From the NCBI GenBank assembly GCA_030615855.1, contig JAUWYL010000015.1:1-31322 (forward strand): a stretch of 31,322 nucleotides of DNA. The letters are read 5' to 3'. The stretch is from a bacterium. Lineage in GTDB: Bacteria > UBP18 > UBA7526. The notes under the pieces were generated by a model. The model saw only the letters and a program-made list of their open reading frames with translations. It made no database searches and had not been told where the DNA came from. Positions within the stretch are counted from its first letter, which is position 1. Every line of letters begins with the position of its first letter. Positions 44-30,832 of this stretch are shown in pieces. The translations under genes and the position numbers were made by a program.

Positions 44-1519
44 TCATTCCAAGCCTTTCTCCGCCATCTCTACCGCTCTTACAAGCGCTCTTGCCTTATT
101 CACCGTCTCTTGATATTCTTGCTCTGGAATAGATTCAGCAATGATCCCTGCTCCTGCCTGGATATAGGCCTGGTTTCCTTTAATGACTATGGTTCTTATG
201 GTAATACCGGTATCGAGATTCCCGGAGAAAGAAAAGTAGCCTACTGTTCCGGCATAGGGGCCCCTTCTTACTGGTTCTAACTCATCAATAATCTCCAGGG
301 CCCTTTTTCTTGGAGCACCCACAACTGTCCCAGCAGGGAAGTTAGAGCGCAGGACATCGAAAGAGTCTTTATTTTTTCGTAGTCTTCCGGTAATATCACT
401 CACGATGTGCATCACATGGGAGTATTTTTCGATGACCATGAGTTCATTTACCCTCACGCTTCCCGGTCTTGACACTTTCCCTACATCATCCTTCCCCAGG
501 TCAACAAGCATCATATGTTCTGCCCTATCCTTAGGATGGGCAAGGAGTTCTTTTTCTAAGGCTTGGTCTTCCTTTAAAGTCTTCCCCCGATGCCTGGTCC
601 CGGCAATGGGTCTTACCTCTACTATCCCCCCTTCCAACCTCACTAAAATCTCTGGTGAGGAACCGATCAATCTCAAACCCTTGCACCTTAAATAATACAT
701 ATAGGGGGAGGGGTTGATGGTTCGTAGTGCGCGATAGATATCAAAGGGATCAACGGTAATTTTAGTCTCAAATCTCTGGGAAAGCACGACCTGAATGATA
801 TCCCCTGCTTTAATATATTCCTTCGCCTTCTTTACCTTTCTCTTAAATCCCTCTTTCGTAAAATTCGACTTTATGATAATCGGTGAACGGTGAACGGTGA
901 ACGGTGAACGGTAATGGGGAGTTGGTTTCTTAAGCTGATTTACCAGATTTTCAATCCTCTCGATCGCCTCCTGGTAGGCCTTCTTGGGATCCTTCTTGAC
1001 AGAGGCATTGGAAATCACCTTTATCTTATGCTCTAAATGATCGAAGATGAGAAGGGTATCGGCTAAGAGAAAGATGGCATCCGGAAGGTTCAGGTCATCC
1101 GGGTTCTCGTCCGGGATTTCTTCAAAGAAGCGCACCATATCATAAGCGAGATAGCCCACCATCCCTCCCACGAACCTGGGAAGCCCCTTAACCTTTACAA
1201 ACTTATAATCTGCCATTAACTTTTTCAAAGTAATGAGGGGATCGAATACCTCTTGGATTTTCTTTTTTCCCTCGCTAATGATCTCTACCCTTCTTCCCTT
1301 GCTCTTAAATATTAAAGAGGGATTACTTCCTAAGAAAGAATAGCGACCTAATTTTTCCCCTCTTTCTGCGCTCTCTAAGAGATAGGCATAGTCACCAGTA
1401 TCGATCTTGGTGAAGGCAGAGACCGGAGTTTCAAAGTCTGCTAAGATTTCTCTATAGACTGGGATGAGGTTCCCTTTTTTAGATTTCTGAATAAATTCTT
1501 TTAGACTTGGATAATACAT
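44..1519 (-). CDS. Chorismate-utilising enzyme, anthranilate synthase component I / aminodeoxychorismate synthase component I family (TrpE/PabB)
   Basis: 491 aa; N-terminal 'ETPVSAF' region and C-terminal chorismate-binding signatures (GAPRKRALEIIDELEP, GTVGYF, AGAGIIAES); ATG start at 1517-1519; contains an in-frame heptamer tandem repeat at ~882-916. Confidence 0.8.
   Translation of the reverse strand: MYYPSLKEFIQKSKKGNLIPVYREILADFETPVSAFTKIDTGDYAYLLESAERGEKLGRYSFLGSNPSLIFKSKGRRVEIISEGKKKIQEVFDPLITLKKLMADYKFVKVKGLPRFVGGMVGYLAYDMVRFFEEIPDENPDDLNLPDAIFLLADTLLIFDHLEHKIKVISNASVKKDPKKAYQEAIERIENLVNQLKKPTPHYRSPFTVHRSPIIIKSNFTKEGFKRKVKKAKEYIKAGDIIQVVLSQRFETKITVDPFDIYRALRTINPSPYMYYLRCKGLRLIGSSPEILVRLEGGIVEVRPIAGTRHRGKTLKEDQALEKELLAHPKDRAEHMMLVDLGKDDVGKVSRPGSVRVNELMVIEKYSHVMHIVSDITGRLRKNKDSFDVLRSNFPAGTVVGAPRKRALEIIDELEPVRRGPYAGTVGYFSFSGNLDTGITIRTIVIKGNQAYIQAGAGIIAESIPEQEYQETVNKARALVRAVEMAEKGLE
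882..916. repeat. In-CDS tandem heptamer (GGTGAAC)x4 + degenerate copy; minus-strand CGTTCAC family
   Basis: Read directly from the sequence; encodes 'SPFTVHRSP' in the TrpE-like protein, reading frame preserved. Confidence 0.8.
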
Positions 1520-7596: not shown

Positions 7597-8431
7597 TCTC
7601 ACCCTTAAGTTCTTCCTCATATCTCTCCAGGGCTATCCTCTCCTCTTTTGTGAACCTTTTCTCCCGGACCAAAAGCTCATCGAAATCCACCAGCTCTCCT
7701 GGAAATTCTGGACCGTGGACGCAGACGAACCTATTCTCTTCTCCTACTCGTACACGACAGCTTCCACACATCCCAGTGCCATCCACCATGATGGTATTGA
7801 GGCTTACCGTAGTGGGAATTTTCTCCTTTTTAGTGATCTCACAGACCTTCTTCATCATGATCAAAGGTCCTATAGCCAGGACCTGATCCATCCTTTTCTT
7901 CTGGGCGATCAATCTCTCCAGGATATCGGTTACCAGGCCCTTCTCTCCATAGGAACCATCGTCAGTAGTGATATAGATCTCCTGGCTTAGATCCTTCATC
8001 TCTTTCTCTAAGATAATGAGCTCCTTAGTCCTAGCTCCCAGGATGGTGGTAATCCTATTCCCGGCCTCTTTTAGCGCTCTTGCAATAGGAACTAAGGGAA
8101 TGATCCCGATGCCCCCTCCAATAGTAAGCACCTCCCCATACTTCTCTATAGAGGTAGGTTTCCCCAAAGGGCCCAAAAGATCCGGGAGGGAATCCCCCAC
8201 CTTCAGGGTAGAGAGCTTCTTGGTAGTCTTTCCCACCTCCTGGAAGATGATGGTTATCCTGTCTTGGGTCCCATCCGCCTCATAGATGGTCAAGGGGATC
8301 CGTTCTCCCTGCTCATCGATTCTCAGGATGACGAATTGACCGGGCAGGGCTTTCTTAGCGATGAGGGGGGCCTCTATTTGGAATAGAGTGATCTCTGGCG
8401 CCACTCTTTTCTTGGCTACTATTTTGTTCAT
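7565..8431 (-). CDS. Ferredoxin-NADP+ reductase subunit alpha-like (NfnA/SudB/PyrK family; FAD + 2Fe-2S)
   Basis: 288 aa; PyrK-like FAD/NAD domain and C-terminal 2Fe-2S Cys motif 'GMCGSCRV...CVHGPEF'; 3' end overlaps start of NfnB-like gene. Confidence 0.8.
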   Translation of the reverse strand: MNKIVAKKRVAPEITLFQIEAPLIAKKALPGQFVILRIDEQGERIPLTIYEADGTQDRITIIFQEVGKTTKKLSTLKVGDSLPDLLGPLGKPTSIEKYGEVLTIGGGIGIIPLVPIARALKEAGNRITTILGARTKELIILEKEMKDLSQEIYITTDDGSYGEKGLVTDILERLIAQKKRMDQVLAIGPLIMMKKVCEITKKEKIPTTVSLNTIMVDGTGMCGSCRVRVGEENRFVCVHGPEFPGELVDFDELLVREKRFTKEERIALERYEEELKGENAQAEARGED

Positions 8432-8477
8432 CTTATCTAATCTTCAAGGGTTAGGAGGGGATAGAGGAGGAATATTG

Positions 8478-8630
8478 ATGTATCGGAGTATGGGCGTATT
8501 GGGGTATCGGTGTATCGGAGTGTCGGTGTAATGGTGTAAGTGAATATTTTTCTTTTTTACTCCCACACTCCACTACTCCCCTACCCCGTTACTCCCTTAC
8601 CCATCCTCACCCGTCCTTACCCTTCTCCTC
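8478..8630. repeat. Strand-asymmetric intergenic repeat region: G/T-rich (TATCGGAGT/GGTGTAAGTG units), then A/T centre, then C/T-rich (ACTCC/TTACCC units)
   Basis: Between NfnA-like start and aminotransferase stop; the two halves are loosely reverse-complementary. Confidence 0.7.
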
Positions 8631-11044: not shown

Positions 11045-11056
11045 CTAATCTCCCTA

Positions 11057-11122
11057 ACACGGATTAGCACAGATTAGAAAAAACAGATTAGCACAGATTT
11101 AATCCGTGCCTATCCGTGTCTA
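11057..11122. repeat. CACGGAT/ATCCGTG-family inverted tandem array (abuts the DERA stop codon)
   Basis: 'ACACGGATTAGCACAGATTAG...CAGATTAGCACAGATT' then 'AATCCGTGCCTATCCGTGTCTAAT'. Confidence 0.75.
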
Positions 11123-12007
11123 ATAGCCGGCTCCAGCTGGGGTTCCCTTTATGATAGCCACGCTCGCTGAGGCCCCGATCCTGGTGGCTCCGGCCTTGAG
11201 CAAGGCTTGGACATCCTCAAAGGTTCTGACTCCTCCCGAGGCCTTTACCCCCATAATAGGACCAACTATGCGACGCATGAGGGCAACATCGGCTACCGTT
11301 GCCCCCCCTCCACTGAAACCGGTGGATGTTTTAACAAAGTCTGCTCCAGCTTCCTTTGCTATCTGACAGGCCTTAATCTTTTCCTCTTGAGTTAGTAAAG
11401 CAGTCTCCAGAATCACCTTAACAATCCTTCCATTGGCCGCATTGACTACCGCCTGAATATCCTTTTTCACCAGATCGTAATTCTTTGCTTTCAGGGCTCC
11501 GATGTTCATCACCATATCGATCTCATCCGCTCCATTGGCGATGGCATCCCTGGTCTCCATGGCCTTGGCCGTGGAGGTCGTGGCTCCTAAGGGAAAACCG
11601 ATTACCGTAGTGATCTTGACTGGGGTCCCTTTTAGTACCTTTGCTGCTAAGGGGACATAACTGGGATTGATGCAGACAGAGGCAAAGTTATACTTCTTTG
11701 CCTCCTCACATAACTGGGTGATCTTCTCTGGAGAGGCATCGGGCTTTAAATAGGTATGATCAATGGTATGGGCAATCTCTTCTTTTGGCGGCCTTGCTCC
11801 AATGGTAGCCCCTATCCTCTCTGCTCCAGCAGCAACTACTTTCTCCACCTCACTGGGACACTTAACAACGCATAATCCACAGGCAGTACATTCGCTATCC
11901 GTTGCCGGACAGATGGTCACTCCAGGAATAACTCCTGTCTCCTCTTCAGCAAGGCGCCGCATAACATTCCTGGTTATTCTATCTATTAGCTCATCGAACT
12001 CAGCCAT
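11120..12007 (-). CDS. deoC: Deoxyribose-phosphate aldolase (DERA) with ~75 aa N-terminal extension (encapsulation-peptide-like helix + 4Fe-4S-type Cys motif)
   Basis: 295 aa; catalytic-Lys region '[16 protein letters not shown]', DERA core from ~aa 80 ('IDHTYLKP'); N-term '[19 protein letters not shown]' amphipathic helix; '[12 protein letters not shown]' = CxxCxxCxxxCP; SD GGAGGAAG. Confidence 0.85.
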
Positions 12008-12035
12008 TCTTCCTCCACGTGATTTCCAAGCATAT

Positions 12036-12096
12036 CGTTTACCGTTAACCCGCTTCGCTGTTTACCGTTTACCGTAAACCGTTAACCGTAAACCTG
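12036..12096. repeat. ACCGT-family tandem heptamers (TTTACCG/TAAACCG/TTAACCG)
   Basis: 'CGTTTACCGTTAACCCGCTTCGCTGTTTACCGTTTACCGTAAACCGTTAACCGTAAACC' between BMV1 stop and DERA start. Confidence 0.75.
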
Positions 12097-12099
12097 CTT

Positions 12100-12369
12100 T
12101 CATTCCATGTCGATGCGGTCTATTACTCCTGCGATAAAAGTCCTCACGGGAATATCTGGATTGCCGAATGCCTGACGGGCAGAGTTTCCCTCATCGATGA
12201 CCAGGACCGTCTCCCCAAAGCCGGCATAACCCTGATCCACGGCCATCAGGGAATTCCCCTCAGGCTTTAGTTTTTTATTCAGAGGTTGAACAATTAAGAG
12301 CCTATTCCCTTCCAGGTGCTTATTCTTCCTGGTAGCTACCACTACCCCGGTTACTTTAGCTATTAACAT
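12100..12369 (-). CDS. BMC vertex (pentamer) protein, EutN/CcmL/PduN family
   Basis: 89 aa; 'MLIAKVTGVVVATRK...LLIVQP' typical PF03319 N-terminus; SD AAGGGAG. Confidence 0.85.
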   Translation of the reverse strand: MLIAKVTGVVVATRKNKHLEGNRLLIVQPLNKKLKPEGNSLMAVDQGYAGFGETVLVIDEGNSARQAFGNPDIPVRTFIAGVIDRIDME

Positions 12370-14153: not shown

Positions 14154-14705
14154 TTATAAGAGGGCTTTACGTAGTGCCTCATGGGGCTTGGGGATGACGG
14201 TTCGATTGACTAATAGTCCTTCCTCTTCTATCTCTCTGCAACCAGCATCTATGGCAGCCTTGACCGCATCTACTTCTCCTGTCAAGGTAACGAAGCCCTT
14301 TCCGGCCAATCCCTTTGCTAAACGAATTTCGATGAGTTCTATCTTGGCCGCCTTTACTGCGGCATCTGCAGCCAGGATAATGGCTGATACAGAGAAGGTC
14401 TCTATTACACCAATTGCTTTTAGCTCCTTAATAACGCTCGTTCCCATTATGGCCGGAAAGACATCGGAGTGGACATTGGGAATGACGAAGCTATCCATCA
14501 CTGTTTCTTTACCCACTTCCTTTCCTTTATCGATTGAGGACCGGACACTGGCCACATCTCCCATTACCAAGACGATATATTTACCGGGGCAGATGGAGAA
14601 GGATTCGATGAGGTCCACTGCCGCTACCTTCATCATGGCATCACAGACCTCAAACCCCCGGGCAACACTATTCAATTCCACCATACCGATGGCATTTTTA
14701 ACCAT
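14154..14705 (-). CDS. pduT: PduT-like tandem-domain BMC shell protein (BMC-T, putative Fe-S pore)
   Basis: 183 aa; two PF00936 domains; strong resemblance to PduT as I recall it ('AIGMVELNSVARG...DAMMK', 'SICPGKY', 'AIGVIETFSVSA...AADAAVKAA', 'GLLVNRTVIPKPHEAL'); conserved pore Cys in 'CPGK'. Confidence 0.85.
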   Translation of the reverse strand: MVKNAIGMVELNSVARGFEVCDAMMKVAAVDLIESFSICPGKYIVLVMGDVASVRSSIDKGKEVGKETVMDSFVIPNVHSDVFPAIMGTSVIKELKAIGVIETFSVSAIILAADAAVKAAKIELIEIRLAKGLAGKGFVTLTGEVDAVKAAIDAGCREIEEEGLLVNRTVIPKPHEALRKALL

Positions 14706-14728
14706 TTCATCCTCGTTTCACTCGGATA

Positions 14729-14816
14729 GTTTACAGTTTATCCGCTCGGCCTTTGGCCTCGCTGTTTACTGTTAACCGTCTTTTACCGTAAACCGTACAC
14801 CGTTAACCGTAAACCC
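14729..14816. repeat. ACCGT-family array containing dispersed block TTTACCGTAAACCGTACACCGTTAACCGTAAACC
   Basis: Upstream of PduT start; 23-27 nt identical to copies at ~25787-25815 and ~26901-26925. Confidence 0.8.
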
Positions 14817-14840
14817 TATCTTGCTGGTTACTGCTCACTG

Positions 14841-16163
14841 TTATGCTTCGATAGTAATAGAGTCTCCGATATCGGTTATCTTTCCCTCTATTGAGGCATG
14901 AATCCTTGCTCCTAAGGCTCCTCTGGGAATATCGGCAATCAAATCTCCCACTTTTACTTTCTCATTCAACTTTACGGTCGGGATCGATTTTGCTCCCACA
15001 TGCTGAGAGAGAGAAATCCTGACAAGGTTCGTCCGATATTCTCTCTTCTCCAGAGGAGCATCAAGATTATATTCCTCTATTCCGATCCTTGAGATGATCC
15101 TCTCTGTAGGAACTTTGCGATACTCTATCATGGAATGGGCTTCCTCCGGAGCCTCCTTATGGGGATTCTTAACCTTGGCCTCTGTCAGTTCCTTTTTAAT
15201 CTCCTGATTCACCCTGAGTGGTGATAGTCCAAAAGGACAAGCATATAGATTACATAAACCGCATTCTGAACAGAGGAAAGCAGCGGTGATGTCATTCAAT
15301 TCCTTTCTCATTTCATACCCCACATGCCTCATTATCTTATGGGGTTTTAAGGAATGGCCGATTAAGTACCGGGGACAGAGTTCAGTGCAGTCGGTGCACT
15401 GCATACAGAGCATGGTCTTCCTGAGGATTTTTCTCATCTCCAGGGTCTTGTTCATAATGACCTGATGGTCTTTGGGCAGGACAATCAATCCCGTGGTGGT
15501 CTTCATTACTGGGGAATCCAAATCTTCAATCAGTTTCCCCATCATAGGTCCGCCATCCAAGACAGAAAAATCATTTATCTTTGGTTCAGCTAATCTTATT
15601 ACCTCTCCCACACTCATCCCCACGGGAACCTTCACTGACTTCGGTCCCTTCACCGCCCCGGATATTGTGAGATAGCGATGGGTGACCGGCCTTCTTTCTA
15701 TAGTATCTGCAACATTGATGAGGGTTCCCACATTATCCACCACCACTCCCACTTGTAGGGGAATTCCTCCCTCAGGGACGATCCTCTTCAATACCTCATA
15801 GACCAGTATCTGCTCATCACCCGCAGGATAGAAGTCACCAAGGATAAATAGTTCGATGTGGGATGGAGGATGTGGGATGTGGGATGTTAAAGCAGCGATG
15901 GCCTCTTTATATTTTTCTTTTAAAGCAATAAATCCCTTCTTGGCTCCCGTGGCCTCCATTACTAGCTTTAAACCCTTGATCACTTTGTTCGCTTGGGTAG
16001 CCATTAATTGCTGATCGATGCGCAAGAGAGGCTCACACTCCGCACCATTGGCGATGACATACTCTACCTTGGTCTCTAACTTCACATGGGTGGGGAAGCC
16101 CGCTCCCCCTGCTCCCACCACCCCAGCATCCCTTACTTTCTCAATAATCTCTTTCTTATTCAT
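14841..16163 (-). CDS. pduS: PduS/RnfC-like Fe-S flavoprotein (BMC-associated oxidoreductase)
   Basis: 440 aa; N-terminus 'VRDAGVVGAGGAGFPTHVKLE' as in PduS/RnfC; two ferredoxin motifs 'CMQCTDCTELCP' and 'CSECGLCNLYACP'; in-frame heptamer repeat (~15855-15886) encoding 'HIPHPPSHI'; my manual base count and the ORF track disagree by 1 nt at this start codon. Confidence 0.8.
   Translation of the reverse strand: MNKKEIIEKVRDAGVVGAGGAGFPTHVKLETKVEYVIANGAECEPLLRIDQQLMATQANKVIKGLKLVMEATGAKKGFIALKEKYKEAIAALTSHIPHPPSHIELFILGDFYPAGDEQILVYEVLKRIVPEGGIPLQVGVVVDNVGTLINVADTIERRPVTHRYLTISGAVKGPKSVKVPVGMSVGEVIRLAEPKINDFSVLDGGPMMGKLIEDLDSPVMKTTTGLIVLPKDHQVIMNKTLEMRKILRKTMLCMQCTDCTELCPRYLIGHSLKPHKIMRHVGYEMRKELNDITAAFLCSECGLCNLYACPFGLSPLRVNQEIKKELTEAKVKNPHKEAPEEAHSMIEYRKVPTERIISRIGIEEYNLDAPLEKREYRTNLVRISLSQHVGAKSIPTVKLNEKVKVGDLIADIPRGALGARIHASIEGKITDIGDSITIEA
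15855..15886. repeat. In-CDS tandem heptamer (GATGTGG)x4.5
   Basis: Encodes 'HIPHPPSHI' inside the PduS-like protein, in frame. Confidence 0.8.
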
Positions 16164-16224
16164 TCCGTCATTCCGTCATTCCGTCATTCCGTCAGTAAGT
16201 TAGACGGATAGACGGATTAGACGT
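16162..16224. repeat. (CATTCCGT)x4 tandem octamer followed by (GACGGATA)x2.5 near-reverse-complement units; includes the PduS start codon
   Basis: Read directly; on the mRNA strand gives ACGGAATG x4 immediately 5' of and including the ATG. Confidence 0.8.
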
Positions 16225-16249
16225 TTCCTTCAAAACTTAAAGTTTTTTA

Positions 16250-17703: not shown

Positions 17704-17789
17704 GCACGGATAATCACGGATTTCATACGGATGAGCACAGATTAAATCCGTGCTAATCTGTATTATTATCAGTGCTAATCCGTGTCTAA
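17704..17789. repeat. Phased CAC(G/A)GAT x4 then ATC(C/T)GTG x4 array (same family as 21443-21523)
   Basis: Unit starts approximately 17704/17714/17725/17735 and 17747/17757/17770/17780 (~10 bp phasing); spans BMV3 stop to AldDH start. Confidence 0.8.
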
Positions 17790-18076: not shown

Positions 18077-18100
18077 CTGTCTCCTCCTTATAGATTAGAA

Positions 18101-18166
18101 GTTTACAGTAGCCAGTTAACAGTAACCAGTCTTCTACTGTAAACTGTTCGCTGGTTACTGGTTACT
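18101..18166. repeat. GGTTACTG-family element: GTTTACAGT...CAGTAACCAG then ACTGTAAAC...CTGGTTACTG (unit / reverse-complement unit, order preserved)
   Basis: Exact 9- and 10-nt reverse-complement pairs at ~30 nt offset; between AckA stop and BMV3 start. Confidence 0.75.
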
Positions 18167-19370
18167 TCTTTGTTTTGCTGATGACATCGTAGGTATCTCG
18201 AGCAATGACCAGTTCCTCGTTGGTTGGTATGCAATAGACTTTGACCTTTGAATTGGGAGCGCTTATCTCCCCCTCCTTCTTTATTGTCTTCTCGTTCCTC
18301 TCCTTATCGATAACCACCCCTAAAAATTCCAACCCAGCACAACTCAAGGCTCTTATTCTGGGAGCATTTTCGCCAATCCCGGCAGTGAAGACGATAGCAT
18401 CCACTCCTCCCATGACTCCGGCATAGGAAGTGATATACTTCCTAATGTGATAGGTGAAGATCTCTATGGCTAATCTTGCCCGGTCATTCCCCTTCTTCTC
18501 CTCTTCCAGGATATCATACATATCACTGCTCACTCCTGATAATCCCTGAAGACCAGAGTGGAAGTTAAGCATGGTATTTACCTCATTTATGGATAATCCT
18601 TCATTAGTCATGATATATAGAACGATGGCGGGATCGATGTCCCCACATCTGGTCCCCATGACTAAACCCTCTAGGGGGGTGAAGCCCATTGAGGTATCGA
18701 TGGATACCCCTCCCTTAATGGCAGCAATACTGACTCCATTCCCCAAGTGGCAGGTGATGACCTTTAAATCTGTCAAGGGCCTATCCATGAGATGGGCCAC
18801 TCTCTGGGAGACATAGAGGTGAGAAGTTCCATGGAAGCCGTATCTCCTTATCCCATATTTACGATACTGAGTGTAAGGCAATCCATAGATATAGGCATGG
18901 CGAGGCATGGTCTGATGGAAGGCAGTATCGAAGACCGCTACCTGGGGGATCCCGGGAAGGAGTTCCTCACAGGCCATGATTCCCCTCAGGTTATGAGGGT
19001 TATGTAGAGGAGCAAGTTCTATGCAATCCGCTATACCTTCTTTTACCTCCTCAGTAACCAGGACTGAAGTAGCAAATTTCTCTCCCCCATGGACTACTCG
19101 GTGACCGACAGCAACAATCTCTTTCTTATCCTTAATGACTCCCGTTTTAGGATGGAGAAGAGCATCTAGGGCTAACTTTATCGCCTCTCTATGATCCAAG
19201 ATCTCTGCTGCCGTCTTTACCGGCTTCTTCTTCCCAACCTGATAGGTTGAGAGCGCTCCACTCATTCCGATTCTCTCCACAATCCCCTTGGCTAAAACAG
19301 ACTCCTTTTCAATCTCAATCAGTTCATACTTCACAGAAGAACTTCCACAATTTAGTACTAATATTTTCAC
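18162..19370 (-). CDS. ackA: Acetate kinase
   Basis: 402 aa; 'KILVLNCGSSSVKYEL' N-terminus and ASKHA-fold motifs; GTG start with SD GGGGGT. Confidence 0.9.
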   Translation of the reverse strand: MKILVLNCGSSSVKYELIEIEKESVLAKGIVERIGMSGALSTYQVGKKKPVKTAAEILDHREAIKLALDALLHPKTGVIKDKKEIVAVGHRVVHGGEKFATSVLVTEEVKEGIADCIELAPLHNPHNLRGIMACEELLPGIPQVAVFDTAFHQTMPRHAYIYGLPYTQYRKYGIRRYGFHGTSHLYVSQRVAHLMDRPLTDLKVITCHLGNGVSIAAIKGGVSIDTSMGFTPLEGLVMGTRCGDIDPAIVLYIMTNEGLSINEVNTMLNFHSGLQGLSGVSSDMYDILEEEKKGNDRARLAIEIFTYHIRKYITSYAGVMGGVDAIVFTAGIGENAPRIRALSCAGLEFLGVVIDKERNEKTIKKEGEISAPNSKVKVYCIPTNEELVIARDTYDVISKTKK

Positions 19371-19403
19371 TTTTACCCCCTTTAAGGTTGGTATTAGTTA
19401 GCA

Positions 19404-19465
19404 GTGTACAGTTTACAGCAAAAAACTGGTTACTGTTCGCTGGTTACTGATTACTCTTTATCTTA
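19404..19465. repeat. GGTTACTG-family element (shares CTGTTCGCTGGTTACTG(G/A)TTAC with 18136-18166)
   Basis: Between PduL stop and AckA start. Confidence 0.75.
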
Positions 19466-19470
19466 ACTTT

Positions 19471-20136: not shown

Positions 20137-20153
20137 TAAAATACAGTATAATA

Positions 20154-20213
20154 GGTGGATTGGTTGGATTAGTTGGATTTAAAATCCACCTAATTTCCTA
20201 ATCCAACTAATTT
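20154..20213. repeat. GGATTAGTTGG-family element: GGTGGAT...AGTTGGATT then ATCCACC...AATCCAACT (order-preserved reverse-complement pairs)
   Basis: Between TPI stop and PduL start; related copy at ~30706-30740. Confidence 0.75.
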
Positions 20214-20222
20214 ACTCGGCGG

Positions 20223-20994: not shown

Positions 20995-21131
20995 CACAGA
21001 TTCACACAGATAAGAGACAGATTCACACAGATCACAGATATTTAATAGCATCCGAATTCCAAAAAATTCTAATATCGAATTTTATAATCTGTGATCTGTG
21101 GCCATCTGTAAACAATCTGTGATGATCTGTG
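20995..21131. repeat. Large symmetric array: CACAGAT x5 (~10 bp phased), then 46-bp A/T-rich centre with GAATT repeats, then ATCTGTG x5
   Basis: rc(CACAGAT)=ATCTGTG exactly; spacer lengths are nearly mirrored (3,4,3,0 vs 0,3,4,2); between BMC-H stop and TPI start. Confidence 0.85.
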
Positions 21132-21442: not shown

Positions 21443-21523
21443 CACGGATAATCACAGATTCTTTACGGATGGTCACGGATCAAATCCGTGCTAATCCGTG
21501 TTGTTATCCGTGCTAATCCGTGT
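21443..21523. repeat. Phased (C/T)AC(G/A)GAT x4 then ATCCGTG x4 array upstream of the BMC-H gene
   Basis: Unit starts approximately 21443/21453/21463/21473 and 21484/21494/21506/21516; between DGC stop and BMC-H start. Confidence 0.85.
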
Positions 21524-23317
21524 CTATTTACTTTTAAAGAGGCAGACCTTATTTCTTCCTTCTCTTTTAGCGCGATATAAAGATTGGTCTGCCTGGCCGA
21601 TTAGTACCTCCTTACGCATACCCTTCTTATAACCGGCCACCCCAATACTCATCGTAATCTTGACTCTCTTCTTCTTTCCTTTTAGAAAATCAAAGCCCTG
21701 GACCTTCTTCCGCAGGCGTTCTGCCAAGAGACAGGCTCCCTTAGCATCCGTCTCGGGTAGGATAAGGGCGAATTCCTCTCCTCCGTAGCGGGCAGCGATA
21801 TCCGCTCCCCTTATAGCTTGCTTTAAGAGACGGGCGATATTCACTAAAACCGTATCCCCCGCTGGATGGCCATAGGTATCGTTAAATCTTTTGAAGTGAT
21901 CAATATCTAACATAAGCAAGGATAATGGAGTCTCATAACGTTTGGCCTTCCCCATCTCCTGCTCCAGGTAATTCTGAAAGAAGGTATGGGCATAGAGACC
22001 GGTCAATCCATCGTGAATCGCCTGCTCATATAGCATAGCATTCTGGATGGCTATCGCAGCATGGCTTGCCAGGGTAGATAGGAGCTCCTCGTCCCGGCGA
22101 ATGAACGGCTGGCGGGAGACCTTATTGGAGAGGGTAATCACTCCCACCCCCTCTCCCTTAGCCACCAGGGGAAGAGCGAGTAAAGTCTCTGTCCTATGTA
22201 ATTTCTTCTCTGTCTTTAGAGTCTTATAGCGTCGATCCCTTAAGGTATCATTGATTACCATGAGTTTCTTCTTCTCAAAGACGCTACCGGCAATCCCTTC
22301 CCCTATCTTTAGCCTCAGGTGTTTCCTGGCCTCCTCACTTATCCCTGTACCATAAGCGATATAGAGCCTCTTTTTCTTCTCGTGCCAGAGCATGAGGGAT
22401 CCCTTCTCCACCTGAGCCACCTCCATGAATAATCCTACGATGAGCCTCAAAAGTTCTTCCCTCTCCAGGTTGGAACTTATCTTTGTCGAGAGTCTTTGAA
22501 GCATCTGAAGATCCAGGACCCTCTGGTCAAGCTCCTCCTTTGCTCTGGCTAAGAGAGTGCTCTTCTCCTCAAGCGATCTCCAGCTCTGAGAGAGCCTCTT
22601 CCCCATCTGGTTAAATACCTCTCCCAATTCCCCCACCTCATCTCGAGAGGTGATCCTCACCCTGGCTCCCAGATCTCCCTTACCAATTTTCTTGGCAGCT
22701 TGAACTAACCTCTTTATCGGTCGGGTAATGCTGGCTGCCAGGAATAAGGAGATGACGATCCCTAGGATGAGCAGGCCAATGGTCAGAAGAAAGATGCGAT
22801 CTCGAATCTCAGCGATCCTTGCTTTTAAGAGGAGAGAGGAGAATCCCACCCTTACCAGGCCGATCCTTCTTTTTCCAAGAAGAATAGGAACTGCGACATC
22901 GTATACTCCCTCTTCTGTAATCTGTGAGAGGGTGGTCCTTGCTCCCTGGGCCTTGAGGCTCAAGTCATCACTCAAGGTCTTGCCCACCAGGCTCTTATTC
23001 GTGTGGGCCATGACCTCTCCAATATCATTCAAAATGATGACATAATCGATATCCTCACCCTTCTTGCCTATTCCCTCCACTATCTGGGCCAAGGTGATGT
23101 AATCATTGGATAGGATGGCCGTGGTGGAGGTGGTGGCCAGAGCATTGGTAATGTCCTTGGCCCTCTTGATCATCTGGTCAGTGGCCGTTCCCTCCTCCCT
23201 TTTGAGAGTGATACCAGCCACTAAGGACATGATGATCACGATGATCATAATCACAAATCCAGCAATCTTTCCTGCTAAACTAACTTTCATCTGTTTAGAA
23301 GTATCCCGGGCTGACAA
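21524..23317 (-). CDS. Membrane sensor diguanylate cyclase (TM - extracytoplasmic sensor - TM - HAMP - GAF - GGDEF)
   Basis: 597 aa; two hydrophobic segments flanking a ~150 aa sensor region, HAMP-like region, GAF-like region, GGDEF with 'RYGGEEFALIL'; TTG start with SD GGGAGG (alternative ATG at 23288-23290). Confidence 0.8.
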   Translation of the reverse strand: MSARDTSKQMKVSLAGKIAGFVIMIIVIIMSLVAGITLKREEGTATDQMIKRAKDITNALATTSTTAILSNDYITLAQIVEGIGKKGEDIDYVIILNDIGEVMAHTNKSLVGKTLSDDLSLKAQGARTTLSQITEEGVYDVAVPILLGKRRIGLVRVGFSSLLLKARIAEIRDRIFLLTIGLLILGIVISLFLAASITRPIKRLVQAAKKIGKGDLGARVRITSRDEVGELGEVFNQMGKRLSQSWRSLEEKSTLLARAKEELDQRVLDLQMLQRLSTKISSNLEREELLRLIVGLFMEVAQVEKGSLMLWHEKKKRLYIAYGTGISEEARKHLRLKIGEGIAGSVFEKKKLMVINDTLRDRRYKTLKTEKKLHRTETLLALPLVAKGEGVGVITLSNKVSRQPFIRRDEELLSTLASHAAIAIQNAMLYEQAIHDGLTGLYAHTFFQNYLEQEMGKAKRYETPLSLLMLDIDHFKRFNDTYGHPAGDTVLVNIARLLKQAIRGADIAARYGGEEFALILPETDAKGACLLAERLRKKVQGFDFLKGKKKRVKITMSIGVAGYKKGMRKEVLIGQADQSLYRAKREGRNKVCLFKSK

Positions 23318-24620: not shown

Positions 24621-25021
24621 TTAAATACTAAGGTAGGCCAGATCTTTTCTAAGACACCCTTCTCCAGCACCAGAATCTTCTTTATGTCCTCTTTCTTTAT
24701 CTCCACGCTCTGGGGACGTCTCACTACCTCTGGCTTCTCCAAGACAATTCTCTTCCCTTTTTTAGACTTCACGGTTCCTACTACTTCACAGCCCGGGGTC
24801 CTAATGAGTACTTTCTCCCCCCTCTTTAGTTCCCCTATCTTTTTCTCTTTCACCATACTGGGCAGGCACATAGAGATTATTCCGGGATAGAGAGGGACCT
24901 GCTTATGGGTCTCCCAGATCTCTTTCAATACCTCAACCACCAGGGCTGGGTTCTTATACTTCTGGATGAGATTTATCATCTCTTTCTTTAGATTGGGATA
25001 ATCCGATTCCTGAAAGGTCAT
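24575..25021 (-). CDS. Hypothetical Lys-rich small protein (translationally coupled to upstream P-loop kinase)
   Basis: 148 aa; SD GAGGAGGGAG; ATG overlaps upstream stop (ATGA); C-terminal codons lie within an ATTCGTGT repeat array; no recognisable domain. Confidence 0.5.
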   Translation of the reverse strand: MTFQESDYPNLKKEMINLIQKYKNPALVVEVLKEIWETHKQVPLYPGIISMCLPSMVKEKKIGELKRGEKVLIRTPGCEVVGTVKSKKGKRIVLEKPEVVRRPQSVEIKKEDIKKILVLEKGVLEKIWPTLVFKEHESTRTIKGRRKK

Positions 25022-25677
25022 TTCTCCCTCCTCAACGCGGATTTCTTTTTGCTGCTTACTGCTTGGGTAATCTTTTCTACTATTCCCTTATAGTGGGCCA
25101 TCCCGTTATAATCGGTATTGACCACTACTATTGGTATCTTTGATTCTTTTCCAAATCTTAGCAGATCATCTCTATCATCGTGAAGATAGGTCTCTTCCAT
25201 CTCCTCACGTGGTACCAGATGGTTATCCACTCCCGCAGCTAAGGTCGCCTCATGCCTTCTCACATTCCTCCTCCAGCAGGTCTCAAAGGAACAATCAATA
25301 TAGACAATCAAGGATTTATCTATGATTCCCTTATCAAAGTTTTTCAGGGAATGGACATAGTTTGAACGGGAGAACTCAATGAAGATCATCCTTCCCTTCT
25401 TATCCAGTTTCTTCACATCCCTATTCACCTCTTTTAGGATGTCATCCCAGACCTTGGGATCGGTAACTTTATATCCCCCATCCTCTGTCGGTTTACATCT
25501 CTTAAAATTTTTGTCGTTTACGAAAATATTCCAGAGTTTTGGGAAGTCATCCACCCTGACAAATTCCTGGGCAAAGCCTTCCTTCTTTAATCTTGGGGTA
25601 AGCCTCCTATGTAACTCGCTCTTTCCACATCCCGGCCTGCCCAACATAAATATATTCCTGCATTCTTTCTTAGCCAT
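25018..25677 (-). CDS. P-loop kinase, polynucleotide-kinase (T4 Pnk kinase domain)/AAA_33-like
   Basis: Walker A 'MLGRPGCGKSE' 10 aa from N-terminus, downstream 'RVDD' and Arg-rich lid 'WRRNVRR'; start taken at ATG 25675-25677 (SD GAGGG); the ORF-track first codon is TTG. Confidence 0.6.
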   Translation of the reverse strand: MAKKECRNIFMLGRPGCGKSELHRRLTPRLKKEGFAQEFVRVDDFPKLWNIFVNDKNFKRCKPTEDGGYKVTDPKVWDDILKEVNRDVKKLDKKGRMIFIEFSRSNYVHSLKNFDKGIIDKSLIVYIDCSFETCWRRNVRRHEATLAAGVDNHLVPREEMEETYLHDDRDDLLRFGKESKIPIVVVNTDYNGMAHYKGIVEKITQAVSSKKKSALRREK

Positions 25678-25778
25678 CAACCCTCGCTTCGTTCGGGAGT
25701 TTATAGTTGAGCGGCGCGTTTTACTTGCCCCGCTGGTGAATAACTGTTATTCAATTTACCCGTTCCCCCGATTTATCG

Positions 25779-25815
25779 GGGTCGCTGTTTACCGTAAACC
25801 GTACACCGTTAACCT
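25779..25815. repeat. Dispersed ACCGT-family block GTTTACCGTAAACCGTACACCGTTAACC preceded by hairpin CCCCGA-ttta-TCGGGG
   Basis: 27-nt identity with ~14783-14809. Confidence 0.8.
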
Positions 25816-25821
25816 TGCCCT

Positions 25822-26799
25822 TCATTTAAAAATACTATTTAGATAATCTGTCTCATCCTGCAAAAGCTTTCTAGCATTAATGATTTCTTGCGGATCCCTC
25901 ACTGCAGTCTCAACGACGATCAGTTCCACCCCTTTTTCCTTTATAATTTCAGCAAACCTCTCTAAGTTCTTCTTCTTCAGGGGGCCCCTCTGGTAATGGA
26001 GGGGGGGATGGAACTTCTTGATCTTGGGGATATAGTCATTGAGATGGATCTCCTTCAAGAGTTCCGCTGGGATCTTTTCCAGGATGCTTTCTGGGGGGTC
26101 TGGTATCTCCTTGGGTGGTGTTCCATCCGCCCTAGTAAACCAGTGGCCGATGTCAAAGCAGTAATAAATCTCCAACCCCTTCTTCTTCACCTCCTCAATT
26201 ACCGGATAGATCTCTTCTGACTCCACGAAGACGATGTCAAATACGGTGTTATTCTCAATGTGAAAGGAGATCCCCATCTCCTTAGAAGCCTGGCTCAATT
26301 CTATAAGGCTCTTGATGAGGCTCTTCTTCAAATCCTCTTGATACTGGGGGCCGGCCTGATAGAAAGGAACAGTGCCTGGATGCATGATGGCATTGATCGC
26401 TCCCACTCCTTCAGCAAACTTCAAGTATCTCTTCTGCAGGGTAACCGCTAATTCCCGGTCCACCTCCTGGAAGGCACAGGTGCTCGTAGCAACATAGGTA
26501 TAGGGGAGATGTAAAGAAATGGTAATTCCCGATTCCTGGGCCGTTTGCCTTACTCTTTCGATCTCTTCCTCACTCATCTCCAAGAAGGGGTTGGGCACCC
26601 CGCCATCCAGTTCTATATGATCCAGGCCGATCTCCTTAGCTACCTCTATCTGTTTAGGGATATCTCTCTTGGACTTTATCTGGGTCAGGGCGTCCAAGTC
26701 CGGAACATCTATCTCACCCCTCTTAAATCTCTCTCTATCCTCTTGGCTTACATAATCTAACTCTAAGAGATTAGTAAAGTTCCTTCCGATTCTAATCAT
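25822..26799 (-). CDS. Xylose isomerase-like TIM-barrel protein (sugar-phosphate isomerase/epimerase or Endo IV-like family)
   Basis: Metal-ligand pattern 'SLHLP', 'MHPG', 'HIEN', 'FDIGHW', 'HLND'; start taken at ATG 26797-26799 (SD GGAG); the ORF-track start is GTG. Confidence 0.65.
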   Translation of the reverse strand: MIRIGRNFTNLLELDYVSQEDRERFKRGEIDVPDLDALTQIKSKRDIPKQIEVAKEIGLDHIELDGGVPNPFLEMSEEEIERVRQTAQESGITISLHLPYTYVATSTCAFQEVDRELAVTLQKRYLKFAEGVGAINAIMHPGTVPFYQAGPQYQEDLKKSLIKSLIELSQASKEMGISFHIENNTVFDIVFVESEEIYPVIEEVKKKGLEIYYCFDIGHWFTRADGTPPKEIPDPPESILEKIPAELLKEIHLNDYIPKIKKFHPPLHYQRGPLKKKNLERFAEIIKEKGVELIVVETAVRDPQEIINARKLLQDETDYLNSIFK

Positions 26800-26818
26800 T
26801 TTTCTCACTCCGTTCGAG

Positions 26819-26925
26819 GGTTTACTGTTGACCGTTTACGGTAAAAAAAACCGCCTCTCGTTTTCACTCGAGACTGGGCGATCCTGAATGAAATGAAGGA
26901 CCGTACACCGTTAACCGTAAACCTT
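26819..26925. repeat. ACCGT-family element: GTTTACTGTTGACCGTTTACGGT...(A)8...GACCGTACACCGTTAACCGTAAACC
   Basis: 23-nt identity with ~14794-14816; upstream of the TIM-barrel gene. Confidence 0.75.
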
Positions 26926-27788
26926 TATTTCTTCAAATATTTTCCAATAAGAAGTTCTAGTTCCTTCTTCCTCTTCTCTGGTATGGCCTCTTTCTGAGTA
27001 ATAACGGCAGTGGCTAAGGCAGTGGCACAGGAACATTCCCTCTTATCTGGTATCCTGGGAATGATCGCTCTAACAAGTTCCTTTGCTTTTAAGGCATTTG
27101 CCTCTAAGTTTTTTATCACGGTCGCAACGCTCACTTCTTCTGTCACATGCCACACATCATAATCCGTAACCAGAGCCACTGTGGCATAGCAGATCTCTGC
27201 CTCTCGGGCAAGCTTCACCTCCGGAAGGTTGGTCATCCCAATGACCTCCACCCCCCAACTGCGATATATTCTGGACTCTGCTCGGGTAGAGAAGGCTGGC
27301 CCTTCGATGCAGAGATAGGTTCCGCCCTTATGTATCCGGTATCCCAAATCCTTGCCCGTTTCATATAGTATCTTGCTCAAGATTGGGCAGTAGGGGTCAG
27401 CGAAGGAGATATGAGCCACTATCCCATCCCCAAAGAAGGTAGGGACCCTAATCTTCGTCCTATCGAATAACTGATCGGGGATGAAGAAGTCCTGGGGCCT
27501 GATCTCTTCCTTCATGCTTCCCACAGCAGAAAAGGCAATGATCCACTCCACCCCCAGAGATTTCAGGGCATAGATATTGGCCTTATTGGGGAGTTCTGTG
27601 GGCATAATCCTATGACCCCGGGCATGACGAGGTAGAAAGGCCACCCTCTTCCCTTCCAAAGTACCAGTGATTATGCTATCTGAGGGCTCCCCGAAGGGAG
27701 TAGAGGGCTTCACCTCCTTCATATCCTCTAAGCCCTTGATATCATATAATCCCGTTCCCCCAATCACCCCGATCTTAATCTTCTCCAT
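26925..27788 (-). CDS. mtnP: S-methyl-5'-thioadenosine phosphorylase (PNP/MTAP family)
   Basis: 287 aa; 'IGVIGGTGLYD', 'FGEPSD', 'GMTNLPEVKLAREAEICYATVALVTDYD'. Confidence 0.8.
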   Translation of the reverse strand: MEKIKIGVIGGTGLYDIKGLEDMKEVKPSTPFGEPSDSIITGTLEGKRVAFLPRHARGHRIMPTELPNKANIYALKSLGVEWIIAFSAVGSMKEEIRPQDFFIPDQLFDRTKIRVPTFFGDGIVAHISFADPYCPILSKILYETGKDLGYRIHKGGTYLCIEGPAFSTRAESRIYRSWGVEVIGMTNLPEVKLAREAEICYATVALVTDYDVWHVTEEVSVATVIKNLEANALKAKELVRAIIPRIPDKRECSCATALATAVITQKEAIPEKRKKELELLIGKYLKK

Positions 27789-30675: not shown

Positions 30676-30705
30676 TCTACACCTCGCTTACGCTTGGAAT
30701 AATTA

Positions 30706-30832
30706 AGGAAATTAGTTGGATTGGGTGGATTAGTTCAACCTTGCCCACCTACGAGGTGGGACAGGTTATACGTATTCTCATATTTTTTTGTCAACTTGTA
30801 TCCTTGTCAACTTCTGGTTACTGGTTACTGTT
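30706..30832. repeat. Intergenic region with GGATTAGTTGG-family copy (30706-30740), perfect hairpin CCCACCT-acg-AGGTGGG (30744-30760), TTGTCAAC direct repeat and a CTGGTTACTGGTTACTGTTC copy (30813-30832)
   Basis: Read directly; matches the families at 20154-20213 and 18136-18166. Confidence 0.7.
30765..30810 (-). promoter_or_regulatory. Candidate sigma70-like promoter for the DHH phosphoesterase gene (two TTGACA boxes on the minus strand, TATAAC -10)
   Basis: Minus strand reads AAGTTGACAAGGATACAAGTTGACA-(A)7TATGAGAATACG-TATAAC; spacer ~18-19 nt, so weak. Confidence 0.25.

Follow-up and report, generated by a model that had tools for sequence, protein, structure and literature searches.

We have analysed a complete 31,322-bp contig of the metagenome type (JAUWYL010000015.1, here called the window), in which a block of 23-27 nt recurs in the spacers between genes. 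We consider it probable that this block is the 5′ arm of a copied, lineage-specific miniature palindromic repeat of about 88 nt, which is built on heptamer arrays and which we call family A. The elements of this kind are dispersed, conserved, quickly turned over, oriented and hairpin-capable, and they include a nested insertion. We class family A as a lineage-specific intergenic heptamer array in the form of a miniature palindromic repeat. As such, it belongs to a described class and calls for no new mechanism.

The recurring block and the family A element

A search of the window located the exact 23-mer CCGTACACCGTTAACCGTAAACC on the plus strand at 14793-14815 and 26901-26923, where 100 dinucleotide shuffles gave an expectation of 0.00 matches. 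On the minus, coding strand, the block reads GGTTTAC GGTTAAC GGTGTAC GG. With one mismatch, the block is also found at 12072-12094, and this is the degenerate version that the first-pass annotation of the window had placed near 12070-12096. The same annotation had listed a further site at ~25787-25815. Here, 25788-25814 (TTTACCGTAAACCGTACACCGTTAACC) shares 27 identical bases with 14782-14808, but it does not contain the full 23-mer. The degenerate pattern ACCGTNNACCGTNNACCGTNNACC matches in all four family A spacers, with 0 matches expected. All four copies of the block are intergenic and lie 2-25 nt 3′ of the stop codon of the preceding gene. The other recurring blocks that had been named are all real. 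CTGGTTACTG occurs at eight places (14824, 18151, 19426, 19440, 30814 and 30821 on the plus strand; 18120 and 19052 on the minus strand) and TTCGCTGGTTACTG at 18147 and 19436, but GGATTAGTTGG is exact only once, at 20166, and its second site appears through the 19-nt degenerate pattern TGGATTNGNTGGATTAGTT (20156 and 30717). The gene labels of the annotation agree with the Pfam domains of the flanking genes.

The block had been taken as the repeat unit itself, whereas an alignment of 10 copies showed it to be the 5′ arm of a larger palindromic element of ~88 nt. The unit of this element is a heptamer in which one base is added to the quasi-palindromic hexamer GTWWAC, and degenerate units of the form GTWWAC+N make up an imperfect palindrome with an internal GC mini-hairpin. 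The element extends from GGTTTACGG via GGTAAACAGCGAGGCCAAAGGCCGAGCGGG to …CTGTAAAC(T) or …TAAACTGTAAAC(T), and the sequences outside these ends diverge by gene context. Its terminal inverted repeats, in which GGTTTACGGTT pairs with AAACTGTAAAC(T/C), form an outer stem of 11 bp with two G·U (in DNA, G·T) positions in 10/10 copies. Tandem Repeats Finder (TRF) reported period-7 arrays at 12060-12094 (5.0 copies), 14785-14815 (4.4) and 25791-25814 (3.4), as well as at 19425-19455 and 30814-30830.

The full element of ~88 nt lies at 14728-14815 on the minus strand, as do the other repeat features of the window described below, and the block is its 5′ end. The 5′ arm GGTTTAC GGTTAAC GGTGTAC GGTTTAC is followed by GGTAAAAGAC GGTTAAC AGTAAAC, by the mini-hairpin AGCGAGGCCAAAGGCCGAGCGG and by the 3′ arm ATAAACTGTAAACT. 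In the same spacer, a conserved leader and Shine-Dalgarno module (ATCCGAGTGAAACGAGGATGAA, 14706-14727) stands directly 5′ of the start codon of a tandem-BMC-domain shell protein (BMC-T), and a 17-nt CAGTNNN mini-array (CAGTGAGCAGTAACCAG, 14824-14840) comes straight after the stop codon of an RnfC-like gene. A short copy at 12037-12094, which holds the one-mismatch block, consists of five GGTNNAC units and AGCGAAGC, then GGGTTAAC GGTAAAC. The copy at 25706-25814 is composite and joins the heptamer array (25788-25814) to a CCCCGA/UCGGGG hairpin and an 'A2 tail' (…AAATTGAATAACAGTTATTCACCAGCGGGGCAAGTAAAACGCGCCGCTCAAC). In the fourth spacer, the 5′ arm of the hairpin with the exact 23-mer (26900-26923) lies 2 nt past the stop codon of a phosphorylase gene and pairs with the inverted 3′ arm ACCGTAAACGGTCAACAGTAAACC (26819-26846). 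Between the two arms, a nested 46-nt module with CGGT…CGGT bounds is followed by a T-run (26851-26899).

The centres of the copies also differ. In the short copy, GCTTCGC on the plus strand (12049-12055, inside AGCGAAGCGGG at 12045-12055) corresponds to a centre of GCGAAGC, a sequence known for its very stable mini-hairpin, d(GCGAAGC). At this central point, longer copies have GCGA-GGCCAAAGGCC-GAGC or other GC hairpins, as if hairpins had been nested there.

Dispersal and positional turnover in related genomes

The RnfC-like protein belongs to a tight clade of homologues with 81-93% identity. Seven syntenic loci of these relatives (L129-L135) were compared with the window, together with eight metagenome contigs that were found by the exact 23-mer (L121-L128). 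When orthologues were collapsed, family A occupied 14 distinct gene contexts in the window, L121-L123, L125, L126, L128-L130 and L135. A local duplication would have kept all copies inside the window, but they also stand in other gene contexts in L121, L123, L125, L126 and L128. In L125, which is of the same lineage by tblastx, the element lies at the junction of GltD to GDH, and in L121, L123, L126 and L128 it lies beside unrelated genes. Further junctions with family A are TIM to PTAC, EutN to Aldedh and BMC-T to a 76-aa gene in L129, DeoC to SHMT in L130, and AckA to EutN in L135.

On the one hand, the junction of the RnfC-like gene to the BMC-T gene holds family A in the window, L130 and L122. 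On the other hand, the same junction holds a CAGTTAA family in L129, a 174-nt CAGATNN/ATCTGNN hairpin in L134 and a CAGGC family in L135, and it is without any element in L132 (22 nt) and L133 (3 nt). The mean spacer length along the same gene string ranges from 33 nt in L133, which has the same operon and no arrays, to 98 nt in L129. In L134, four consecutive spacers (8417-8571, 11324-11497, 12050-12175 and the 3′ end of the locus) carry near-identical CAGATNN/ATCTGNN hairpins of 125-175 nt, a resemblance that indicates local spread to adjacent junctions.

Conservation, orientation and folding

The cores of family A are 92-98% identical whether they are orthologous or not (8 copies from at least 5 assemblies), whereas for most pairs the identity at the four-fold degenerate sites of the flanking genes is 56-74%. 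For the orthologous copy in the window, L130 and L122, the identity is 93-98%, against 61-72% at the flanking four-fold sites. In 30-nt windows, the element is better conserved than the coding DNA on both of its sides. The order of the variant units (TT, TA, GT, TT) is constant across gene junctions and genomes.

Family A is in sense orientation in 13/14 gene contexts and antisense in one, in L126 (two-sided binomial p ~0.002). Considering that a GTWWAC+N array is a direct and an inverted repeat at once, it forms a hairpin of 6-bp helices that are parted by single mismatches. The sense RNA of 14706-14840 folded with -36.2 kcal/mol (z = -3.5) and that of 26809-26924 with -35.9 kcal/mol (z = -2.5), and in the latter the arms pair around the inserted module. 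Against dinucleotide shuffles, 8/18 long spacers of the window had z < -2, and the spacers of the relatives L129, L130 and L135 had median z values of -2.5 to -3.7. In 7/7 listed copies of family A, the sense RNA was more stable than the antisense RNA, by 4-14 kcal/mol in five and by ~3 kcal/mol in two, because of conserved G·U pairs.

An alternative to a copied passenger is that family A, and perhaps the other families too, is a functional structured RNA under purifying selection, a device for RNase processing and stability or for translational coupling or uncoupling, which would set the stoichiometry of shell proteins and enzymes and whose spread would be recruitment. The conservation of the orthologous copy above both the four-fold sites and the flanking coding DNA, the orientation of 13 to 1, the better folding of the sense RNA with its conserved G·U pairs, and the highly conserved Shine-Dalgarno leader adjoining the element are all consistent with such a device. 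However, the RnfC-like to BMC-T junction works with another family (L129, L134 and L135) or with none (L132 and L133) in close relatives, and therefore no specific sequence is required for the operon. Also, the credible genes of the window are all on the minus strand and the GC skew is uniform, and therefore the replication strand might explain the orientation bias just as well, and this bias is not assignable to transcription. A sense bias in the folding of all families, support from covariation, and an Rfam family were each looked for in vain. Accordingly, we regard a selected RNA device as possible but rather unlikely.

We considered the hairpins as intrinsic terminators and rejected this role, as terminator-like sites were not enriched (17 found vs 20.5 expected). 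Only two spacer hairpins are terminator-like. One of them, at 26873-26856, is the exception among the family A spacers and belongs to the nested module, not to the block, and the other, at 11110-11090, belongs to the CACGGAT family. T-runs otherwise lie in hairpin loops. Promoter-like sites were not enriched either (30 found vs 25 expected), and in the whole window 0 matches reached the Rfam gathering threshold.

A leader of the form CTGTAAACTATCCGAGTGAAACGAGGATGA(N)-ATG stands directly before several start codons (window 14706-14736, L133 7108-7137, L129 12076-12105, L130 11432-11460 and L132 12257-12285). It is identical at 30/30 positions in L133 as well, although the SHMT of that genome has only 80% identity. 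Its variants keep YCC-GARYGAARYGA-GGR and exchange UCC/GGA for CCC/GGG, and this pattern of paired swaps suggests a small hairpin that overlaps the Shine-Dalgarno sequence. The leader had no Rfam match. The stretch next to the ribosome-binding site was tried as a part of family A and left out of the element, because the copies of other contexts (L121, L125, L126 and L128) diverge right after …GTAAAC(T)A.

Shared modules, nested insertion and slippage

Besides the heptamers, the copies have non-repetitive modules in common, namely the mini-hairpin GAGGCCAAAGGCCGAG, the A2 tail of 55 nt, which L129 and two L135 spacers share with window 25706-25757, and the 46-nt insert. Two copies of this insert were seen, each with CGGT on both sides. 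They are identical at 49/49 positions (window 26851-26899 and L135 644-692, in the TIM-to-PTAC spacer), and the two genomes differ at ~30-40% of four-fold sites. The orthologous spacer of L129 (5954-6115) represents the uninterrupted empty site …ACGGTAAAAGACGG… for this module. In the window, the module is followed by T8 and provides the sole terminator-like hairpin among the family A spacers.

The number of units also varies. In the PTAC-to-AckA spacer, each arm has 1 unit in L132 and 3-4 units in the window and L129. Copies of family A differ by indels of 3-17 nt (L130_12010 minus 17 nt, L125 minus 3 nt), and the 17-nt CAGT mini-array at 14824-14840 is private to the window, being missing from the orthologous spacers of L130 and L122. 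These differences agree with a pure in-situ expansion of simple sequences, in which slippage would build the array in each spacer, hairpin-templated strand switching would make the inverted arm, nothing would move, and identity would be convergence. The presence of the exact 23-mer in L124 and L127, contigs with a much higher G+C, of which the former has an SHMT of only 54-60% identity, points the same way. In addition, heptameric simple sequence repeats (SSRs) are over-represented in bacteria, and slippage has been proposed as the cause (LSSR; Mrazek 2007, summarised in PMC4679880; PMC4692102). However, the variant units keep a fixed order and the copies have non-repetitive modules in common across junctions and genomes, and therefore independent slippage is ruled out as the sole source. 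An expansion of this kind is largely refuted as the only process, and we consider it improbable as an explanation of family A. Slippage nevertheless operates beside copying, as is seen in the varying unit number at orthologous sites and in the private mini-array.

Gene context and repeat families of the window

Pfam domains indicated a microcompartment-type cluster with BMC and EutN shell proteins, an aldehyde dehydrogenase, PTAC, acetate kinase, a DeoC aldolase, RpiB, TIM and an RnfC/Nuo51-like protein, with genes of amino-acid metabolism on its flanks. The nearest named homologues of the SHMT have ~70% identity and belong to several phyla, and look-ups of the exact proteins of the two end genes of the contig gave no match. 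Three of the spacers with family A are bordered by the BMC-T gene (14154-14705) and the RnfC-like gene (14841-16163), by genes of an AAA_18 kinase-like protein (25018-25680) and an AP_endonuc_2 TIM barrel (25822-26808), and by the gene of the PNP_UDP_1 phosphorylase (26925-27788). The acetate kinase gene (18162-19370) is 87% identical at four-fold sites with that of L129 (6865-8085). The value is 61% for the window and L130, and 66-74% for the neighbours of the gene in the window and L129, which suggests a recent recombination within the cluster among these lineages.

Nearly all spacers longer than 45 nt follow one plan, in which units of 7-10 nt that share a conserved core of 4-6 nt form a first array, a short loop comes next, and a second array has the complementary core. 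Although the spacers account for 8% of the window, 23/33 tandem arrays reported by TRF lie in them, and tandem arrays cover 27% of the bases in spacers versus 0.9% in coding sequence. At least six to eight families, family A among them, differ in their cores and together fill almost every spacer. The core ACGGT is found in 12008-12099, 14706-14840, 25681-25821 and 26809-26924, and the core CAGT/ACTG in 18077-18161, 19371-19470 and 30814-30832. The latter core forms hairpin arrays of the CAGTNNN/ACTGNNN family at 18092-18161 (the GGTTACTG block of the annotation) and 19396-19463, and a CTGGTTA mini-array of two units at 30814-30832. A hairpin of the CACGGAT/ATCCGTG family lies at 17708-17785, with related copies at 11045-11119, 21036-21131 and 21443-21526, the last with its core arrays at 21477-21523. 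At 16164-16249, (TCCGTCAT)x4 opposes (GACGGA)x3 with a period of 8 and the core GACGGA/TCCGTC. The TTGGATTAG/CTAATCCAA family has a hairpin at 20140-20222, in the spacer 20137-20222, and a half copy at 30701-30735. A period-8 G-rich array faces a C-rich array at 8473-8622, and the spacer 8432-8630 gave a minimum free energy of -73 kcal/mol on the sense strand (z = -5.4). Convergent arrays of one unit that are capable of a stem-loop are thus found at 26900-26923/26819-26846 and in the spacers 16164-16249, 8473-8622 and 20140-20222.

The arrays could also be binding sites for a protein of the lineage that recognises GGTNNAC heptamers at 7 bp, in the manner of iterons or operators, and that co-regulates the flanked genes. 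The conserved pentamer core, the strict 7-bp phasing and the 3-6 units per site at several junctions would suit such a protein, as would a preferred polarity of the arms in other phyla (33 to 5 among the matches listed). Heptameric direct repeats are reported as binding sites of some regulators (SARP-type). However, at least 6-8 cores occur in one gene string, and relatives have different cores at the same junction. The arrays lie between co-directional genes, right after stop codons and with no evident promoters (promoter-like sites 30 vs 25 expected), and the relative L133 has the same operon without arrays. We consider it very unlikely that family A consists of such binding sites. The weakest alternative, that the repeats are chimeric joins from assembly or binning, draws on the metagenome type of the contig and on the ability of short repeats to mislead assemblers, but the chance of it is negligible, given intact reading frames on both sides and the same architecture with the same element at the same junction in independent NCBI, JGI and ENA assemblies.

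Heptamer arrays were also found inside two coding genes. In the TrpE-like gene (44-1519, minus strand), a perfect array of CGGTGAA x4.6 (881-912, 100% matches) lies in the linker (aa 203-213) of the Anth_synt_I_N and Chorismate_bind domains, and the frame is open. In the RnfC-like gene, an array of GATGTGG x4.7 (15855-15887) encodes TSHIPHPPSHI, a loop with indels in the homologues P0006 and P0025, and therefore array-type sequence also enters tolerant coding loops. The copies of the recurring block are 1-11 kb apart with genes between them, and they do not form a CRISPR array.

Discussion

We propose that two processes would account for family A and the other families. Local slippage would change the number of units, and copying from one spacer to another, by some form of transposition or gene conversion, would move whole composite elements and would also nest small modules inside them. 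The elements are probably co-transcribed with their neighbours, since they are sited between co-directional genes and lack terminators. Their action, if any, would be that of intercistronic RNA hairpins, which would buffer mRNA decay or processing and would uncouple the translation of neighbouring cistrons. They would be largely selfish or structural passengers rather than a dedicated regulator of this gene cluster.

The first-pass annotation had explained the recurrence either by active copying of a small non-autonomous mobile element or by strong selection on a recognition site. Copying is upheld, in that the same composite, non-repetitive parts included, is found in non-orthologous spacers of several relatives, its conservation is far above that of neutral sites, and the nested insertion has an empty site. 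The small mobile element fares less well, as the whole element has no target-site duplication and no transposase was found in ~150 kb of lineage DNA. A single recognition site for a protein or an RNA is disfavoured, because different cores sit at the same junction in different genomes.

Several results weigh against a copied, lineage-specific element. The Pfam lists of the window and of ~150 kb of related loci contain no transposase or RAYT-like gene. Target-site duplications, which the annotation had proposed to look for, are not found around whole copies of family A, as no direct repeat is common to the flanks of 10 copies. The sole duplication is the CGGT…CGGT around the nested 46-nt module. 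The exact 23-mer was found in only 8 metagenome contigs, and two of these, L124 and L127, have a G+C of 55% and 58% versus 47%. The SHMT of L124, with its low identity, comes from clearly another organism, and L127 is probably from a second different organism. Therefore, chance convergence among arrays can yield an exact 23-mer, and the exact identity at several sites, on which the annotation had relied, is weak proof here. Also, the loops and mismatches are conserved nearly fully, beyond the requirement of a simple hairpin, which argues for homogenisation, recent spread or an unknown sequence-specific partner.

At the RNA level, there was no excess of sense over antisense folding across all families (37 v 30 of 67 spacers, Wilcoxon p = 0.73). 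In the own stems of family A, no pair was changed on both sides, and the covariation term was +0.87. Five pairs that were changed on both sides fall in the downstream leader columns, outside these stems. The covariation count is uninformative because the copies of family A are too similar. With no overall sense bias and no decisive covariation, a role at the RNA level is therefore putative.

A more far-reaching pair of ideas, each of which would be new, is rather unlikely. Family A with the Shine-Dalgarno leader would be a portable structured intercistronic RNA module, and the 46-nt module would be an ultra-small mobile element. The portable module may be under purifying selection, move between junctions and tune the expression of operons. 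The CGGT-duplicating 46-nt module may target the heptamer arrays themselves, and may thus represent an SDR-like system outside cyanobacteria that has no known mobilising enzyme.

In these spacers, we see an uncultured lineage filling its intercistronic DNA with hairpin repeats over and over again. Metagenome assemblies break at arrays of this kind, the calling of gene starts is distorted by them, and they can pass for regulatory motifs. With its high conservation, fast positional turnover, sense bias and nested micro-insertion, family A would provide a tractable case for the question of passenger versus operon-tuning RNA, and it bears on the movement of elements of <100 nt without a recognisable transposase. 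The reading of the microcompartment locus is unchanged, and the repeats belong to a described bacterial class.

Comparison with known systems

In a scan of a genome collection, the degenerate pattern was found at no fewer than 120 loci (at least 15 phyla). The following results hold among the matches listed. ACCGTNN arrays occur in Saprospiraceae and other Bacteroidota, Gemmatimonadota, Acidobacteriota, Chloroflexota, Nostocales, Desulfobacterota, Planctomycetota, Omnitrophota, Actinomycetota, Proteobacteria and one archaeon. An inverted partner lies within 200 nt of 38/139 arrays, versus 0 in control windows, and in 33/38 of these inverted pairs the ACGGT arm is 5′ of the loop, on either strand alike. 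The exact 23-mer is in none of the 120 loci, and neither are the modules of family A, for which a hidden Markov model of the element and BLAST of the non-repetitive modules gave no more than weak array-level matches. Searches of plasmid and phage collections likewise gave no match.

Several known miniature elements resemble family A in part. Correia/NEMIS elements of Neisseria, BOX and RUP elements of Streptococcus pneumoniae, and ERIC elements are intergenic, transcribed sequences of 50-150 nt that have terminal inverted repeats and form hairpins. They are modular, as in the variable number of boxB modules in BOX, and their presence or absence varies between strains. Correia elements have IHF or promoter features and a TA target duplication, to which we found no counterpart at family A. 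The modules of BOX measure 45-59 nt, whereas those of family A are heptameric. As in miniature inverted-repeat transposable elements, family A has terminal inverted repeats, 14 dispersed contexts, and both filled (window, L130 and L122) and empty (L132 and L133) junctions, but it is without the target-site duplication of such elements. The SDRs of Nostoc are reportedly near-identical elements of 21-27 nt that are inserted in tandem heptameric repeats or hairpins and whose sites are filled in some relatives and empty in others. The nested 46-nt module of family A is similar to these cyanobacterial repeats in this respect, but it differs in its length of 46 nt, in its 4-nt CGGT duplication and in the two copies seen.

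REP elements stabilise mRNA. Their inverted doublets, the REPINs, are hairpin-forming, non-autonomous miniature mobile DNA made of short extragenic palindromes and present in hundreds of copies (Bertels & Rainey 2011, PMC3116915). Like REPIN and REP sequences, family A is an extragenic palindromic doublet that forms hairpins and would be co-transcribed in operons. REPINs, however, are defined by their link to the RAYT gene (Y1 transposase) and not by tandem heptamers, and no RAYT was seen in the related loci compared.

The heptameric SSRs (LSSR, Calothrix/Nostoc STRR, Xanthomonas GGGAATC and Beggiatoaceae TAACTGA) share with family A the tandem 7-nt units, the almost exclusively intergenic location, the variation of length and sequence at one junction, the frequent convergent stem-loop arrays and the patchy phylogeny. 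In Xanthomonas, the intergenic GGGAATC arrays often come as convergent inverted pairs, and close relatives differ in them at one and the same junction (Rehm 2015, PMC4692102), and inverted pairs of heptamer arrays of this type are found in the spacers of the window. TAACTGA arrays occur 5′ of start codons in Beggiatoaceae, cyanobacteria and Bacteroidetes (MacGregor 2015, PMC4679880). They lie within a few nt of the start codons, whereas family A starts 2-25 nt past the upstream stop codon. Compared with the heptameric SSRs, the units of family A are degenerate in a fixed order and are joined with non-repetitive modules into an element of ~88-110 nt, this element is copied to non-orthologous sites with 92-98% identity across genomes, and many cores are present per operon.

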